From Candidatus Termititenax aidoneus (GTDB lineage: Bacteria > Margulisbacteria > Termititenacia > Termititenacales > Termititenacaceae), in assembly GCA_003864455.1 (NCBI GenBank), contig BGZN01000004.1, positions 3,125 to 67,124 of the forward strand: a stretch of DNA of 64,000 bases. The letters run 5' to 3'. The notes under the pieces are model-generated. The model was not told the DNA's origin. It saw nothing but the letters and a program-made list of their open reading frames with translations, and did not search any database. Numbering within the stretch: the first letter of the stretch is position 1; the number at the start of each line of letters is the position of its first letter. Positions 5,233 through 12,404 of the stretch are shown here, one piece after another. Both the position numbers and the translations under genes were made by a program.

Positions 5233-6666
5233 ATGGCAGAAAAGTTGATTTTCGAATATTCGCAAAAAGGCCGGAAAGCGCATACTTTGCCGGACGCGCC
5301 GCCGGTCAGTTTTGGTTTGCCGGAAAGAAAAGGCTTGCGCCTGCCGGAAGTCTCGGAAGTCGATGTCACACGGCATTACACTAAACTCTCGCAGCAAAAT
5401 TACGGCGTGGACAGCGGTTTTTATCCGCTCGGCTCCTGCACGATGAAATACAATCCGAAAATCAACGAACAGATTGCCGCGTGCGAAGAATTTGCCGAAA
5501 TGAATCCTTATGAGCCAGAACGTTTCGCGGCCGGACTGCTCAAAATACTTTACGCAGCCGAACAAATGCTCTGCCAAACTTTCGGTTACGCGAGATTTAC
5601 GCTGCAGCCAGCGGCCGGCGCGCACGGCGAATTTACCGGACTGTTGATAATTCGCGCGTATCATCTAGACCGCGGCGACACCCAGCGCGTCAAAATTTTA
5701 GTGCCCGACGCGGCGCACGGCACCAATCCGGCTTCCTGTGCGCTGGCCGGCTTTCAAATTGTAACTATTCGGTCTCTGCCGGACGGCGGTGTAGACCTAA
5801 ATGACCTAAAAAAACATCTCGACAATACTGTCGCTGGATTGATGCTGACTAATCCGAACACGCTCGGTTTATTTGAAAAAAATATTCTGCCAATCGCCGA
5901 GTTGGTGCATAACGCCGGCGGCCTGCTTTACTATGACGGCGCAAACGCCAACGCCACGCTTGGCCTAGCTCGTCCGGCCGATATGGGTTTTGACGTCTGT
6001 CATCTCAATTTGCATAAAACCTTTGCCACGCCGCACGGCGGCGGCGGACCCGGCTCCGGTCCGGTCGGCGTTACAACCGCGCTCGCGCCGTATCTGCCGC
6101 GTCCGCTAATCGATTTTCAAAACGGAAAATATTATCTGAATAATGACCGGCCTAAATCAATCGGCAAAGTGCATTCTTTTTACGGCAATGTCGGTGTGAT
6201 CCTCCGCGCTTACGCCTATCTAAAAATACAGGGTTCGGCAGGCTTGAAACGCGCTTCCGAATTGGCTGTGCTGAACGCCAATTATGTCAAAGCCCGTCTG
6301 CAAAAAGTTTATAATATTCCTTATCCGCAAATCTGTCAGCACGAGTTTGTCATCAGCGTCAAAGAATGGAAAAAGCAATATGGCGTGTCGGCCGCGGACA
6401 TTGCCAAACGCCTCATGGATTACGGTTATCATCCGCCGACGATTTATTTTCCGCTGATCGTGCCGGAATGTTTAATGATCGAGCCGACCGAAACGGAATC
6501 CAAAGAAACGCTGGACGCTTTTTGCGACGCCATGCTCAAGATCGCTACGGAGGTAAAGACGAACCCGGAGCTTGTAAAATCCGCGCCGCACAGCACAATT
6601 ATTGGACGTTTAGACGAAGTCAAGGCGGTCAAAGAGCCGGATTTGAATTATTTTGCCGGAGCTTAA
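5233..6666 (+). CDS. gcvPB: glycine dehydrogenase (decarboxylating) subunit 2
   Basis: [14 protein letters not shown]... is the usual GcvPB N-terminus, and a PLP-site region is present. The ORF is open from 5170, overlapping the gcvPA stop, but the conserved start aligns at 5233 with a GGGG Shine-Dalgarno. Confidence 0.88.
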
Positions 6667-6670
6667 GAAC

Positions 6671-6698
6671 AGGAATTGAACCTGCGACCCGCGCGTTA
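6671..6698 (-). repeat. partial duplicate of the tRNA-Thr 3' end (T-arm and acceptor 3' side, 28 nt)
   Basis: gaacaggaattgaacctgcgacccgcgc is identical to 7171-7198 inside the intact tRNA-Thr. The repeat is direct and sits 0.5 kb downstream. Confidence 0.7.
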
Positions 6699-6717
6699 TG
6701 ATACACTACCGAATATG

Positions 6718-7098
6718 AGAAAATTTACCATTGAATTTGAAGCAGGGGCATTGCCCACACAAAAAGAATTAGCAACAGCTTCTTTTCTCGCAAACCAAAG
6801 AAAGAAAATCTTATTTCTAAAACCGATAGACCGCAATCACATCAAAACTCCTGACATTATAATGGATAACTTAAAATGGGAAATGAAATGCCCTGAAGGT
6901 AAGGGAAAGTATTTGTTGCAAAACACTTTACACAAGGCAATAAAACAATCTGTCAATGTAATCATAGATTTAAGATGGATTAAAATTTCCCCGGAAGAAA
7001 AATGTATCAGTAAGTTAAATAAGGAATTTAACCTATCCAAAGCCCTGAAACGTCTGGTAATCATCACGCGGACAGAAATGCTTGACTTACAAAAATAA
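6718..7098 (+). CDS. hypothetical protein (orphan ORF inside the tRNA-Thr-bounded remnant)
   Basis: ORF of about 127 aa, MRKFTIEFEAG...IDLRWIKISPEEK..., AT-rich with atypical composition. No recognizable domain. Confidence 0.3.
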   Translation, partial: RKFTIEFEAGALPTQKELATASFLANQRKKILFLKPIDRNHIKTPDIIMDNLKWEMKCPEGKGKYLLQNTLHKAIKQSVNVIIDLRWIKISPEEKCISKLNKEFNLSKALKRLVIITRTEMLDLQK

Positions 7099-7161
7099 TT
7101 TGCTATGATTGCTATATAAAGCGCGGCCGGAACTGGAATGTATCGGTTGCGCTTTTTCTTT

Positions 7162-7237
7162 TGGAGCCGAGAACAGGAATTGAACCTGCGACCCGCGCAT
7201 TACGAATGCGCTGCTCTACCAGCTGAGCTATCTCGGC
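7162..7237 (-). tRNA. tRNA-Thr (anticodon CGT)
   Basis: The reverse complement GCCGAGATAGCTCAGCTGGTAGAGCAGCGCATTCGTAATGCGCGGGTCGCAGGTTCAATTCCTGTTCTCGGCTCCA folds as a cloverleaf. It has GTTCAATTC in the T-loop, anticodon loop TTCGTAA and an encoded CCA. Confidence 0.85.
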
Positions 7238-7760
7238 ATAAAGACAGATAATACTACCTATAACACAATTACAAAATAGCAATATATATTTAACGATACA
7301 TGAAACAGCAACCGTTGGTTGCTGTTAGCTATCTCGGCACGAAGACAATCACTATTATCTGCCAAATATTTACAAAATAACAACATCTACTCAACGTTAC
7401 ATGAAACCATAGCCGTCAGGCTATGGTTAGCTATCTCGGCACGAAGACAGTCACTATTATCTGTCAAATATTTACAAAATAACAACATCTACACAACCAT
7501 ACGGTAGCTTCGACAGGCTCAGCCACCGGGGTCAAATATTTACAATATCTACTCAACGTTACATAAAACCATAGCCGCAGGCTATGGTTCGCTATCTCGG
7601 CACGAAGACAGTCACTATTATCTGTCAAACATTTACAAAATAACAACATCTACACAACCATACGGTAGCTTCGACAGGCTCAGCCACCGGGGTTAAATAT
7701 TTACAATATCTACTCAACGTTACATAAAACCATAGCCGCAGGCTATGGTTCGCTATTTCG
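7238..7760. repeat. tandem repeat array of 4-5 units (90, 102, 161, 161 bp plus a partial unit); each unit begins with the tRNA-Thr 5' 11-mer and ends with a hairpin
   Basis: gctatctcggc recurs at 7227, 7328, 7430, 7591 and, degenerate, 7752. Units 7430-7590 and 7591-7751 are about 98% identical. Each unit carries the hairpin aaccatagccgcaggctatggtt. Confidence 0.8.
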
Positions 7761-7804
7761 GTATAAACTTAAAACAGGCCAGTATTTTAGCAGAAAAATT
7801 AAAT

Positions 7805-10531
7805 TTAGGGACTTTCGGCGGTATCTTTATTTTGAGCTTTTATTTTTGGCTTGCGTCCCAGCCGCGCGGCATTGAACGCGGAGCCAATAGTCAGTCCCTC
7901 ATGTATCAGCATAGAAATGAACATATCCATAGTGCGCAGCATACGGCCTACACTGTTGCTGAATAAATTTCCAACGTAATTGAAAGCAAGACCGGTATAG
8001 CCGGTAACCACGCCGCCAATGACTAGCGCATTGCCAATAGTCGAAAGGAGAATATTTTGCAGCATATTACGGGAATACTGCCGCGACATTTGTAAAATAT
8101 CTACAACTTTAGACAACTGACTGCCGTCCGTAACCAGCGCATGCGCGGCGTTGCGTGCCAGACCTTTGGCGTTCCAACTGATGCCAAAATCCGCCGCGGC
8201 CAGAGCGCCGCTGTCATTATTGCCGTCACCGACCATAGTTACATATTGTTTGCCGCCGTTTTGGTCTTTTTGCAAATTGCGAACGAGCGCGGTTTTTTCT
8301 TCCGGACGCAGTTCCGCATGTATATCTGTGTCTGGCAACGGTTTCGCGCCGCGCGCCAGTAATTCTTTATTCAAAAGTTCGACCGCGGCCTGAACTCGCT
8401 GCCGGCTGTCCCCCGAAGCGATCACAATCCGCTGTCCGGTTTTTTGCAGAGCGAGAATAGTGTCCACCGCGTCCGCGCGCAGAGTTTCCGCATATTCAAA
8501 ATAAAGCCGTGCCTGACCGTCCACAACCATAACCACAGCATCTTCATTGAGACCGGTTGTCTCTGCCGTTGATAATAAACCTTCACCGCGCAAATACTTT
8601 AATGAGCCAACAGAAATTGTATGCTCCTGTCCGTCCGCGGTGTATGTGCCTTGCACAGCTTTGCCTAAATCCTGGAAATTTCTAATTTCCGGTCTCTGCG
8701 TCTGCGGACCGATATATTCGAGTATTTTTTCCGCAATAGAATGCGCGGCCAGAAATTCCACAGCATACAACAGCGGCAAGTCTTGCTCCGGCGCGCCATC
8801 CACCGTGTAATGCAAACCGCGGATAGAGAGGTGCGAGCTGTCGGTCAGCGTATCAGTTTTATCAAAAACAATAATTTGAGTTTTGCCAGCGGCAGCCAGA
8901 GCTTTGGGATCGCGTAAAATAATGCGGTCTTTGGCCAGGCGGGAGATGAGCGCCAGCTTAGCGGTAGGCAGAGCGGTCTGTACTCCGCAGGGCGTAGTCG
9001 CGACCAAAATAGTTAACGCGTTTTTGATCGCGAACATATTGGCCGAAAGCACGCCGTACATAAAGTAACCGCTGGAAAACAAACTCATCGCCGGAGACCA
9101 TTTGCGGCTGAAAGCCTCGACAATATCTTCCGCCGCGCTTTTATTAGCGATGGCCTGCTGGATCTGTTTTTCCTGCTGGGCTAAAGCGGAATCCGCGTAA
9201 GTCCGGAGCGCCTGCGCCTGCGCTGTGTCGTCCAGAACAATAGCTCCTGATAATACAGTTTGACCGGGCATTTTCAATACAGGCACGGATTCGCCGGTCA
9301 TATGCGACTCGGACACGGTCATTTGCTGGAGAGCCACCGCGTCCACAGGCAACTGCTGGCCTTTTTTCAAAACCAGCGTGGATTGCGGCGCTATATTCTC
9401 CAGCGGAGTCAAAGTCTGTCTGCCGTCCTGCAGGGTGATATATTCCTTAGCCAGTTGAGAACTGTTCATCACTCTGGCCAGAGCTTTACGGGTTTTATTT
9501 TCCGCAAGTTTTTCCAGTACATGACTGAGCTGGCCGTGCATGACCGCCAAAAAAGCAGCCTCGGCCAAACCGGGTAAAGCGCCGCCATAATTTTGCCAGG
9601 GAGTGCCCAGACATTCTTGAATAGCTTGCTGATGTATCGGGCAGCAAGGAATATAATCGCCGCTGATAAAATTATACATAGACACAAAAAACGGCAGGGC
9701 AATCGAAAGCGCGATTTGCGTGTCTATCGAAACCGTTCTTCGGCGGGCAGTACGCAAAAACTGCAAAAAAGCCTCTTCGCGTTCTGACGTCAACTGCTCT
9801 TGAAAAACCGCCTGCGCCAACTGCCGCTGTTTATTTGGCGGAAGCAGCGCGGCTCTAGCCAAAAGTTTTTGCGCGCCCAGCAGTGAACGCCTGAAAAAAA
9901 GCTCGGCGTTTTGCTCCGCCGTATGACGCAAATAAGCCATGACCGCGTCGGTCTGCCCGATAGTCAAGCCCAGATCAAAAAGCGCCGCGTATATTTCCTC
10001 GGCGCAGTTTTGCGCGTTGACCGTATATAAATCTGCGCCCAACGGCGCGAGCACTTCCTGTTTCTTTAATAGGTCAAATATTTGTTCCAGCAAATTTTGA
10101 TCTTGAACTCCGGTCTGCAGAGCAAAGAGTTTTTGATCAATATTATTAAATTCTGAAAATTTAGTCTGCAGCTCAGACAGAGTAAAGCGCGGCAGGCGCA
10201 GATTTTGCACGGCGTCCTTAACCAGACCAAAACCATAAAAAGAAGCCAGGGTTAATCCGATAGTATTTACCAGACCGAGAGTTCCGGAAGAATGGATTTT
10301 GAACAAAGATACATTTTGCGCAGCGTCGGCCAAAATACCAAGGTTTAAGCTGGAGCGCACCTCAGAAATCTGTCCGCCTAAATTGCCAGAGCCATAATGG
10401 ATCAAAAGCGGCAGGGAAAAGATAAATGCGGCATAAGCGCCTCCCGCCACAGCGCCGGTGGTTTTAGCAATATCGTGAAATTTGATTTTCTCGGCCTCTA
10501 AAACATCCGCAGCCACAATTTTGAGATACAT
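7805..10531 (-). CDS. P-type ATPase, heavy-metal (P1B)-like, with divergent core motifs and a roughly 420-aa N-terminal extension
   Basis: Actuator motif SESHMTGES; membrane motif TPCG in place of CPC; phosphorylation motif FDKTDTLT in place of DKTGT; hinge motif VGDGNNDSGALAAAD; several transmembrane segments. Confidence 0.7.
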   Translation of the reverse strand: MYLKIVAADVLEAEKIKFHDIAKTTGAVAGGAYAAFIFSLPLLIHYGSGNLGGQISEVRSSLNLGILADAAQNVSLFKIHSSGTLGLVNTIGLTLASFYGFGLVKDAVQNLRLPRFTLSELQTKFSEFNNIDQKLFALQTGVQDQNLLEQIFDLLKKQEVLAPLGADLYTVNAQNCAEEIYAALFDLGLTIGQTDAVMAYLRHTAEQNAELFFRRSLLGAQKLLARAALLPPNKQRQLAQAVFQEQLTSEREEAFLQFLRTARRRTVSIDTQIALSIALPFFVSMYNFISGDYIPCCPIHQQAIQECLGTPWQNYGGALPGLAEAAFLAVMHGQLSHVLEKLAENKTRKALARVMNSSQLAKEYITLQDGRQTLTPLENIAPQSTLVLKKGQQLPVDAVALQQMTVSESHMTGESVPVLKMPGQTVLSGAIVLDDTAQAQALRTYADSALAQQEKQIQQAIANKSAAEDIVEAFSRKWSPAMSLFSSGYFMYGVLSANMFAIKNALTILVATTPCGVQTALPTAKLALISRLAKDRIILRDPKALAAAGKTQIIVFDKTDTLTDSSHLSIRGLHYTVDGAPEQDLPLLYAVEFLAAHSIAEKILEYIGPQTQRPEIRNFQDLGKAVQGTYTADGQEHTISVGSLKYLRGEGLLSTAETTGLNEDAVVMVVDGQARLYFEYAETLRADAVDTILALQKTGQRIVIASGDSRQRVQAAVELLNKELLARGAKPLPDTDIHAELRPEEKTALVRNLQKDQNGGKQYVTMVGDGNNDSGALAAADFGISWNAKGLARNAAHALVTDGSQLSKVVDILQMSRQYSRNMLQNILLSTIGNALVIGGVVTGYTGLAFNYVGNLFSNSVGRMLRTMDMFISMLIHEGLTIGSAFNAARLGRKPKIKAQNKDTAESP

Positions 10532-10700: not shown

Positions 10701-12404
10701 CTAAACAGCCGCCACAGCTTCCAATTCCTGTTCTTGAAGCTCCGTGTCTTGTTTTTGTTTTTTCTTGCGGCGTCCTTCCTGCTCACGCCGGTCTTTTTGC
10801 TCGCGCTGGCGTTTAAGATAATCGCGCCAGACTCCGTACATACCTTCCAGATCTTCGTCCTGTTCTTCTTTATGTATAATTTTTCCCAGCAGCAAATTAA
10901 TCAATTTGCTTAGATTTTCTTTTTGTATATCGCGTTCATGGGCGATGCGGCTCAATTCCGCAAAAGAAATAATCGGCTGGCTCTGAACTTTGGCCTCTTT
11001 CGCGCCAATATCGCCAAAAGATAAAACGCCGCCGGATCTGCCAGCCAGAGCAGTTCCTTCCAGCCCTCTGAAATTATTCAGAATCATTTTTTCGCCGTTT
11101 TTGCCGGTAAGCATGGTTTGCTCCGCCGTCAGATTGGCAAAAGCCAGATTAATCTGTATCGGCCTGAGCATAACCTTTTCGCCGGTTACAACAGTATTGC
11201 CTGTATTGCCCGCCGCCAAAACTGCGGCGCCGGATTGATAGATATTTTTGGCGCTGTCAGAAAATACTGCGTTAACCGTATTATTTAAAACCGGACTATG
11301 CACAGCGCGTAAAATCTGCGCCGACATTCCCCCTGTGGCGGCGCTGTTAGACAGGTTTACCGCAGCAGCCGTATTCGCAGATGCGGAAGGCGGCGCGCCG
11401 GTCGCAGCAAGCGTGGCTGTTGCAGCTAGCCCGGTGGCTGAGCTTGTCGAAGCCACCGTATGCGCTCCAGCTGCAGCAGGCGCGGCGGTTGCAACTGTTG
11501 GAGTCGTGGGAACTGCTGGGGCGGCCTGGGTTACGGGAACTCCGGCAGGCACAACACGCCCTGCGCTAACCGTATTTTGCTGAACCGCCGCCGTGCCTGT
11601 ACTGGCCGCCGGCACATTGATTGTATTGTATTGTATTGAAGCCGTTTTAGAAAAAATATTTTGGGCTTGAGTATTTTGACCTGACCCAATATTTGACGTT
11701 ATGCTTCGCGCCGCCGCTGCCACAGTTTGATTTGAAATACCGGCGCGTGAGGCTGCTTGTACGGAAACAGTTGTATTGGCCGGCAGACTTACGCTGACCT
11801 TCACGCTGCGCCCCATAACAGGAGCAGAGGACTTGTCAGCGGCCTTGGCCGTAGCCAGGGCTTGGTCGGCCTTTGCCTCTGCAACGCGGCTATTTGCCAA
11901 ATGCTCGGCTGTAGTTTTGGCGGTAAGCTGCGCCTGTACAGAAGCTGAAGTATTTTGTTGTCCGACAGGTGTTTTCACATCCTGCGCTTTGTTTCCCGTA
12001 GAAGCGCTGACTATCGTTCCGGAACTCGACGCTGTATTGCTTGCTAAAGCGGATTTTGAAGAACCACCTGTTACCGGATCGCTAAAACTTACCGCTCTTG
12101 CGCCAGAACAAACCGGACAATTACAAGTGTCTGGATGTCCTCTCTGAATAGCGGCCGCCATAGCGCCCGCAGCTATTTTACTTCCTGCCGCCTGCTCAGC
12201 AACAACCAACGCCTCCACCTGCTTTGCTTGCTGCGGAGCAGCCTGTACGCTATTGGCATTCGACAATCCTCTTTGCACAATCACCGGCGCTCCTGACTTT
12301 GCTTGCTGTGGAACAGACTGCGCGTCATTAGCGCTTGACGCTCCTCGCTGCACAACTACCGGTCTTGCCGGCTGAGTAACCGCAAATAAACCAACACCGG
12401 TCAT
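10701..12404 (-). CDS. hypothetical protein, Ala/Thr/Ser/Val-rich low complexity, with a Cys cluster and a Lys/Arg/Glu-rich C-terminal tail
   Basis: 567-aa ORF with an N-terminal imperfect repeat (VVQRGASSANDAQSVPQQAK / VIVQRGLSNANSVQAAPQQAK), the motif CNCPVCSG, and the tail ...RQREQKDRREQEGRRKKKQKQ. Confidence 0.4.
   Translation of the reverse strand: MTGVGLFAVTQPARPVVVQRGASSANDAQSVPQQAKSGAPVIVQRGLSNANSVQAAPQQAKQVEALVVAEQAAGSKIAAGAMAAAIQRGHPDTCNCPVCSGARAVSFSDPVTGGSSKSALASNTASSSGTIVSASTGNKAQDVKTPVGQQNTSASVQAQLTAKTTAEHLANSRVAEAKADQALATAKAADKSSAPVMGRSVKVSVSLPANTTVSVQAASRAGISNQTVAAAARSITSNIGSGQNTQAQNIFSKTASIQYNTINVPAASTGTAAVQQNTVSAGRVVPAGVPVTQAAPAVPTTPTVATAAPAAAGAHTVASTSSATGLAATATLAATGAPPSASANTAAAVNLSNSAATGGMSAQILRAVHSPVLNNTVNAVFSDSAKNIYQSGAAVLAAGNTGNTVVTGEKVMLRPIQINLAFANLTAEQTMLTGKNGEKMILNNFRGLEGTALAGRSGGVLSFGDIGAKEAKVQSQPIISFAELSRIAHERDIQKENLSKLINLLLGKIIHKEEQDEDLEGMYGVWRDYLKRQREQKDRREQEGRRKKKQKQDTELQEQELEAVAAV

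Follow-up and report, generated by a model that had tools for sequence, protein, structure and literature searches.

Tandem units headed by the first 11 nucleotides of tRNA-Thr(CGU) lie upstream of this gene in Candidatus Termititenax aidoneus and related Margulisbacteria: a possible amplified control cassette

In a 64,000-nucleotide (nt) stretch of Candidatus Termititenax aidoneus DNA (contig BGZN01000004.1, positions 3,125 to 67,124 of the forward strand; the window hereafter), the interval between a P-type ATPase gene and a tRNA-Thr(CGU) gene holds an array of four head-to-tail units of 101, 102, 161 and 161 nt (window 7238-7762), which are headed, exactly or nearly so, by a copy of the 5' end of the tRNA. 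Five further contigs from Margulisbacteria carry this module, likewise 5' of tRNA-Thr(CGU). The array is a real, conserved and unannotated feature, and the mechanism by which it formed is an ordinary one. We consider it rather probable, though far from certain, that it represents the control cassette native to the region upstream of tRNA-Thr(CGU), multiplied in head-to-tail fashion.

The tRNA gene is intact and lies on the minus strand at 7162-7237, at the downstream end of the array (ARAGORN; 69.4 bits with the Rfam tRNA model). Tandem Repeats Finder returned a period of 102 (2.3 copies, 84% matches) and a period of 161 (2.4 copies, 96% matches), spanning 7269-7761, and our repeat search gave start-to-start spacings of 101, 102 and 161 nt. 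Together with the unit alignment, this search delimited four minus-strand units: W1 (161 nt, 7602-7762), which adjoins the ATPase gene, W2 (161 nt, 7441-7601), W3 (102 nt, 7339-7440), and W4 (101 nt, 7238-7338), which adjoins the tRNA and is the most diverged. Identity between W1 and W2 is 98%; W3 matches both at 92-93% when their 59-nt insert is left out, and W4 shares 66-68% identity with W1-W3 outside its first 11 nt. A preliminary description of this DNA, made from the sequence alone, had placed tandem units between the ATPase gene and the tRNA, and had read the near-identity of the two long ones (about 98%) as a sign of recent duplication; both statements were borne out.

Read in the sense of the tRNA, a unit starts with the 11-mer, one variable base, AAC, a 10-bp stem with a 3-4-nt loop, GTT and T(T/C)ATGT, and continues with the box GTTTCATGTAACGTTG, the box GCTGTTATTTTGTAAT holding a -35-like TTGTTA, a further 18 nt, GATAAT, and a leader of about 16 nt that runs to the next 11-mer. 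The 11-mer, GCCGAGATAGC, equals nt 1-11 of the tRNA. It occurs exactly at four sites on the minus strand (7227, 7328, 7430 and 7591), that is, in the tRNA itself and at the heads of W4 (7328-7338), W3 (7430-7440) and W2 (7591-7601), where a shuffled control predicts 0.9 matches at up to one mismatch. In W1 the corresponding copy (7752-7762) is degenerate, reading ACCGAAATAGC, so that the earlier claim that every unit starts with the tRNA 11-mer is exact for W2-W4 and fails by two mismatches for W1. Position 12 is variable, being T, G or A among the copies, so that the match to the tRNA goes no further than nt 11. Considering all loci together, 13 of the 14 copies outside the tRNA are exact, while identity over the rest of the unit is only 49-59% when the units of the window and loci L005, L006 and L007 (type I) are compared with those of loci L001 and L011 (type II).

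The hairpin that follows the 11-mer is present in all four units in two sequence versions. W4 carries the type-A hairpin (7304-7326), AACAGCAACC-AAC-GGTTGCTGTT, with 10 bp; type B is found in W3 (7405-7428, where the loop has 4 nt, one base more), in W2 (7567-7589) and in W1 (7728-7750). The preliminary description, according to which one and the same hairpin (aaccatagcc...ggctatggtt) ends every unit, thus applies to W1-W3 and not to W4. The 23-nt hairpin did not occur in shuffled sequence. With L001 and L011 counted, six stem sequences occupy this one position, all of them paired (AACCATAGCC, AACAGCAACC, AACAGCAATC, AACAGCC, GGACGC and GCACAC). In an alignment of 13 units, pairing is retained in 92.9% of cells, as against 17-47% when the partner strand is slid, and both sides have changed in five of the 10 pairs. 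The hairpin is therefore under structural selection, and its compensatory changes are directly seen. Calculated with their flanks, the folding energies range from -12.9 to -16.9 kcal/mol, for stems of 6-10 bp followed by 3-4 U; the suggested likeness to an intrinsic terminator is plausible. The W1 hairpin probably doubles as the terminator of the ATPase transcript.

Downstream of the hairpin, a promoter-like TTGTTA-18-GATAAT matching nine of 12 positions is found in three window units, at 7617-7646 (W1), 7456-7485 (W2) and 7354-7383 (W3), and its hexamers fall in those boxes that are best conserved across species. W4 has a -10-like TATTAT (7248-7253) lying 10 nt 5' of the tRNA start, and a TAnnnT hexamer could be read from the sequence 10-19 nt 5' of the tRNA start in every lineage.

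Related contigs were fetched via the ATPase and via GcvPB. The five that carry the module (L001, L005, L006, L007 and L011) bring to six the lineages in which it is conserved, and by this distribution the module is older than the split of at least these six. The number of units per locus varies from one to four or more. In L001 (ATPase 83% identical), a single unit made of the 11-mer, the hairpin GGACGC/GCGTCC and about 80 nt leads to the tRNA; L005 (ATPase 82% identical) and L007 (71%) each have two full units and one partial first unit; L006 (77%) has at least three copies of the 11-mer, its contig stopping inside the array; and L011 has at least two full units of 99 nt, 99% identical, plus part of a third, at which point its contig also stops. 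W4 is 72-76% identical to the units of L005 and L007 and to unit L006_U2, and 63% identical to L006_U1. In the more distant L009 (ATPase 50% identical), the ATPase gene is followed by a hairpin (CTGTCC/GGACAG), a promoter-like region and the tRNA, with no 5' tRNA fragment. As the same parts thus stand in the same order and in single copy in L009, the parts of the unit are resident terminator and promoter sequence of this intergenic region. In L008 the tRNA is inverted and has no 5' array, and L002, L009 and L010 were uninformative on copy number, synteny being lost or the array absent. One comparison deserves mention: L001 and L006, whose ATPases are 79% identical, share a left flank of about 95% identity through the 11-mer and AAC, after which the unit types are unrelated (about 55% identity).

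The 59-nt insert occurs only in W2 (7489-7547) and W1 (7650-7708). The internal segment pointed out in the preliminary description is thus real, and it proved to be a composite of local duplication and inverted copying, consisting of a shortened second copy of the promoter box (ATTGTAAATATTTGAC), a 33-nt inverted patch, and a second copy of GTTGTGTAGAT. The patch (7498-7530 and, in its second copy, 7659-7691, minus strand) is an inverted copy, identical at 31 of 33 positions, of 11430-11462 on the plus strand, its probable source, which lies 3.8 kb from the array within an open reading frame (ORF; 10701-12404); shuffles gave 0.00 such matches. The local duplication of promoter parts, together with this inverted copy from 3.8 kb away, therefore points to a template switch during replication and not to imported DNA.

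In type-II units, tRNA nt 12/13-23 recur without mismatch (TCAGCTGGTAGA) at a distance of 12-25 nt from the 11-mer that follows; local alignment against shuffles gave p = 0.002 for L011 and p = 0.035 for L001. These units would therefore be built of reiterated local tRNA sequence. Two loci hold a copy of their own D-loop just upstream of the tRNA, at 11915-11960 in L011 (CAGCTGGTAGA) and at 8090-8131 in L001 (TCAGCTGGT), and in L009 (7850-7891) AATTGGTA stands upstream of the tRNA and matches the variant D-loop of that locus, CAATTGGTAGAG; the box upstream of the tRNA thus seems to track the D-loop of the tRNA that follows. We also considered the units as decayed copies of a whole tRNA. Beyond the 11-mer, type-I units showed no significant similarity to the tRNA (p = 0.29-1.0), only the D-loop piece of type II being significant, and this origin was rejected.

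Several other identities were examined and set aside. An insertion sequence (IS) or a miniature inverted-repeat transposable element (MITE), which the preliminary description had named as the finding that would overturn its account, was looked for, and no terminal inverted repeats were found; the sole inverted repeats are the internal hairpins, and the motifs are confined to the locus within the 64 kb, no unit motif occurring elsewhere in the window. The same description had held the array to be neither a clustered regularly interspaced short palindromic repeat (CRISPR) array nor a coding repeat, with which we agree: whole units of 101-161 nt repeat without unique spacers, and the ORFs of 33-61 amino acids in the window units are not conserved, their frame being closed after six codons in L005 and L007, nor is a 161-nt period divisible by 3. 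The TTTG-rich boxes suggested a Bacteroidetes-type promoter (TAnnTTTG); the spacing does not fit, and the host belongs to the Margulisbacteria. The AAC...GTT that flanks the stems recalls an integron attC site, an identity rejected in view of stems of only 23 nt, ill-fitting RYYYAAC/GTTRRRY cores and the lack of an integrase. IS200/IS605 or repetitive extragenic palindromic (REP)-like hairpin elements were rejected in view of the two hairpin sequences within one array and the lack of dispersal. Rfam searches, at the gathering threshold over the whole window and at E-values up to 10 over the region and four loci, returned tRNAs only and no RtT (RF00391), the one other match being a spurious antisense Plastid-ycf2 on the tRNA itself. 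Scans of viral contigs for the unit, the 3' element described below and the insert gave 0 matches. A metagenome pattern scan for two 11-mers starting 86-116 nt apart yielded nothing from the Termititenax lineage; what it did yield was one coding repeat (L003), which is irrelevant here, and one unrelated case at a tRNA-Phe (L004). Our literature search found nothing on the array or on Termititenax tRNA loci.

According to the interpretation that we favour, the amplified cassette would comprise (i) a stem-loop with a short U run, ending transcription that arrives from upstream, (ii) conserved AT-rich boxes, including the sigma-70-like TTGTTA-18-GATAAT, (iii) a leader of about 3-10 nt (16 nt separating the -10-like hexamer from the 11-mer), and (iv) tRNA nucleotides 1-11. 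The junction between tRNA nt 11, the variable base and the hairpin would have been born once, in the ancestor of a Termititenax subclade. The array would then have grown and shrunk by slippage and by unequal recombination between the 11-nt and unit-length direct repeats, and one unit would have gained the templated insertion and been duplicated afterwards, giving W1 and W2. In operation, the tRNA-adjacent promoter alone would make pre-tRNA directly, while upstream promoters would start transcripts holding tRNA nt 1-11; such a transcript would either stop at the next hairpin, as a dead-end RNA of about 45-55 nt, or read through and add to the pre-tRNA. The hairpins would shield the tRNA and each promoter from upstream transcription, including that coming from the ATPase gene. 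Among the explanations offered in the preliminary description, serial duplication of the promoter-leader region of the tRNA is the one that fits best, in view of the layout of L009, the variation in copy number among relatives and the local templated insertion.

A number of observations weigh against this interpretation. A terminator scan calls none of the array hairpins, since few T follow the full stem. Promoter-like sites are not in excess in the region (6, compared with 4.3 +/- 2.1 in shuffles), and W4, the unit closest to the tRNA, matches poorly at the aligned -10 position. The ATPase-proximal 11-mer is exact in both L001 and L006, though their ATPases have diverged as noted above. The copy numbers are those of metagenome assemblies, in two of which (L006 and L011) the contig breaks inside the array. 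Finally, neutral duplication alone leaves the conservation of the 11-mer unexplained: an 11-mer kept exact in units otherwise about 50% identical calls for direct selection, for a role in recombination, or for repeated resetting by the copy in the tRNA.

This last point leads to the alternatives. On the evidence of the sequence, the combination of 11-mer and hairpin might itself be what is selected, either as an array of 5'-tRNA-fragment RNAs of about 50 nt, acting as decoy or regulator, or as a promoter-swapping recombination core; we give this general idea a minor place. In its RNA form, each unit promoter would drive an RNA of about 50 nt (short leader, GCCGAGAUAGC, terminator hairpin) selected for a function of its own, such as that of a regulator, or of a competitor or decoy for some factor recognising tRNA-Thr by its 5' acceptor/D region. 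Small-RNA genes arranged in such a battery would account for an 11-mer that is invariant in 13 of 14 copies while its flanks diverge, for a hairpin kept through compensatory changes in six versions, for the conserved promoter-like boxes that each unit has to itself, and for the independent expansion of the array in several lineages. Yet no complementary target exists in the window besides the tRNA itself, no Rfam family matches, the ATPase-proximal 11-mers of L001 and L006 are exact though no unit promoter stands in front of them, and array turnover with resetting from the tRNA copy could imitate selection. We therefore judge such a battery to be possible but rather unlikely. Less probable still, in our opinion, is a mini-cassette model, in which recombination, whether site-specific or directed by microhomology, uses the 11-mer as its core and exchanges or accretes the units, making them a 5' analogue of integrase-less cis-mobilizable elements. 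The exact identity block with its sharp edge at nt 11/12 in all lineages, the degeneracy of the outermost 11-mer in the window, and the breakpoint between L001 and L006, where a shared flank gives way to unrelated unit types, would all agree with it; the 3' side of the same tRNA is moreover a proven integration hot spot, and cis-mobilizable elements with tandem accretion are on record (PMC5704250). It is opposed by the gene content, since no site-specific recombinase or integrase was found among the called genes in the flanks of L005-L008 and L011 (up to about 6 kb on each side), nor any site-specific recombinase by Pfam among the five window ORFs flanking the array. It is also opposed by the fact that the units consist of resident sequence, namely a terminator and a promoter that the outgroup L009 has as well, that copies are lacking elsewhere in the window, in the viral collection and, for this lineage, in the single metagenome scan, and that the long unit arose by local templated insertion. 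Integrases that target tRNA genes reportedly duplicate the 3' part of the gene and not the 5' part, which also counts against this rival. For like reasons, scars of integration and excision, another option of the preliminary description, came out as the weakest of those it had offered: neither an integrase nor imported sequence nor dispersal was found, and the confirmed att-type repeats at this tRNA are on its 3' side.

Two further explanations carry little weight with us. In the one, the array is a stack of attenuators, the 11-mer acting as an anti-terminator that pairs with the 3' arm of the hairpin, and a signal sets how much transcription reaches the tRNA. The pairing is feasible, as GAGAUAGC can pair with GCUGUUUC (3' arm and tail of type-A hairpins) and does so in the minimum-energy fold of the short L006_U1 hairpin, and the AUAGC of the 11-mer recurs in the 5' arm of type-B hairpins. 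In most units, however, the alternative is much less stable than the 10-bp hairpin; it has no support from covariation and is absent from the one type-II hairpin that was folded (L001), and no sensing element is apparent; a stack of this kind is thus very improbable. In the other, the array or its repeat number is an artefact of assembling metagenomic contigs. Short-read assemblers do mishandle repeats of 100-160 bp, and the contigs of L006 and L011 stop inside the array. Nevertheless, the module is present in six independent assemblies from different samples and pipelines, and substitutions, hairpin type and insert set the units of one array apart, differences which collapse or expansion would not create; an artefact is therefore unlikely in the extreme. 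Taken together, we retain the amplified control cassette as the preferred explanation.

The gene upstream of the array (7805-10531, minus strand) encodes a P-type (E1-E2) cation ATPase with Pfam matches to PF00122 and PF00702 (E1-E2 ATPase, HAD). Its stop codon is 42 nt upstream of the array, and its product is 100% identical to PacS of Candidatus Termititenax aidoneus. Exact-protein look-ups of this ATPase and of the small ORF described below returned no record. About 18 nt directly after the ATPase stop (AATTTTTCTGCTAAAAT; window about 7789-7806, minus strand) are invariant in five lineages (window, L001 and L005-L007) and still recognisable in L009, and the 3' untranslated region around AATTTTTCTGCTAAAAT diverges. 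Further upstream, the ORF at 10701-12404 (minus strand) encodes 567 amino acids rich in Ala, Thr, Ser and Gln, with a charged C-terminus rich in Lys, Glu and Gln, and has no Pfam match; ORFs without Pfam matches occupy a similar position before the ATPase gene in L005, L008 and L009.

On the other side of the tRNA lies a mini-island of about 500 bp (6657-7161), bracketed by the tRNA and a degenerate copy of its 3' part and devoid of an integrase. The copy (6657-6698, minus strand) covers tRNA nt 36-76 approximately, from the anticodon loop to the end, and has intact equivalents in L001 and L005. The only gene of the mini-island is a small plus-strand ORF (6676-7098, the likely ATG being at 6715) with a CdiA_C toxin-like domain (Pfam PF18451, E = 2.6e-10), for which an orthologue of 127 amino acids was called in L005; a PDB sequence search with this ORF was uninformative. 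The mini-island is present in L001 and L005 and absent from L007, where the far flank is identical, and L007 therefore represents the empty site. The array of RNAs of about 50 nt envisaged above might, if it exists, be linked to this tRNase-like toxin gene, which is inserted at tRNA-Thr too. The stretch separating the CdiA_C-like ORF from the tRNA has an inverted repeat (AAAGCGCGGCCG / CGGTTGCGCTTT; 7118-7155) which, having T runs on each strand, resembles a terminator that would serve these two convergent genes in both directions.

A different element, of 170 nt, is situated between tRNA-Thr and a 25-nt copy of the tRNA 3' end in L001 (8208-8376) and L008 (8729-8902). The tRNA 3' repeats that bracket this element and the CdiA_C mini-island measure 25-41 nt. 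About 125 nt of the element are some 90% conserved between these two divergent genomes, and several of its hairpins show compensatory changes (for example, GTTCCGC..GCGGAAC versus GTGCCGC..GCGGCAC). It had neither an Rfam nor a viral match and may represent a structured RNA not described before, or else an integrative element of very small size. Lastly, in L004 (metagenome contig Ga0155630_104, from an unrelated organism; 842-1030), the first 14 nt of a tRNA-Phe (GCCGAGATAGCCAA) are duplicated 112 nt upstream, the copy of GCCGAGATAGCCAA standing directly after a tRNA-Ile in a tRNA cluster, and a promoter-like TTGGAT-17-TATAGT lies between this copy and tRNA-Phe. Here, independently, a 5' tRNA fragment stands ahead of its own gene, which suggests that such arrangements may be general.

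Overall, these data show that a conserved tandem array with a tRNA fragment in its units can exist on the promoter side of a tRNA gene in bacteria, whereas the example known so far, tyrT of E. coli, concerns the 3' side only. Should the units be transcribed, they would amount to naturally occurring, insulated promoter-terminator cassettes, and tRNA 5'-fragment RNAs would have a source in the genome. Should they be a mere by-product of slippage, the locus, being that of a highly transcribed gene, would neatly illustrate concerted evolution and templated insertion. That 11 nt are kept exactly across lineages, in units that are otherwise about half identical, constitutes a specific and testable puzzle. 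In practical terms, such arrays break metagenome assemblies, two of the six contigs ending inside one, and could be misread as CRISPR-like or mobile elements.

The closest parallel is the repeat region distal to tyrT/tyrV of E. coli (rttR/rtT RNA, tpr), where head-to-tail units likewise flank a tRNA gene and each includes a terminal tRNA fragment. In strain MG1655, which we checked, these repeats have a period of 178 bp and 3.1 copies, with the last 19 nt of tRNA-Tyr in each unit, and are annotated as rttR/tpr; the tyrT repeat region is transcribed and yields a small RNA (bioRxiv 10.1101/2024.07.17.603846). In contrast to these repeats, which lie 3' and copy the tRNA 3' end, the Termititenax units lie 5' and copy tRNA nt 1-11, and carry promoter-like boxes and a terminator-like hairpin of their own. 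Having no similarity to RtT in sequence or structure, and belonging to another phylum, the Margulisbacteria, the array is an analogue and not a member of that family. Short and exact partial copies beside an intact gene are also the mark of truncated tRNA pseudogenes and remnants, but the Termititenax copies comprise 11 nt (plus nt 12-23 in type II), hold a fixed position relative to the hairpin and promoter, and are conserved across species. With the cis-mobilizable elements, which are integrase-less segments with tRNA-identical direct repeats that accrete in tandem at tRNA genes (PMC5704250), the units have in common that they are short, bounded by the 11-mer at both ends, stacked and variable among relatives; the 3' side of the Termititenax tRNA-Thr itself offers classic examples of such elements. 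The units differ from them in copying the 5' end of the gene, in consisting of resident sequence, in their length of 95-161 nt and in having no associated recombinase. Finally, the series of promoter-like elements before one stable-RNA gene resembles the tandem promoters of stable-RNA genes such as rrn P1/P2, with the difference that in Termititenax these elements are exact or nearly exact repeats, split by terminator-like hairpins and a fragment of the gene, so that most initiations at the upstream unit promoters may never reach the tRNA gene.

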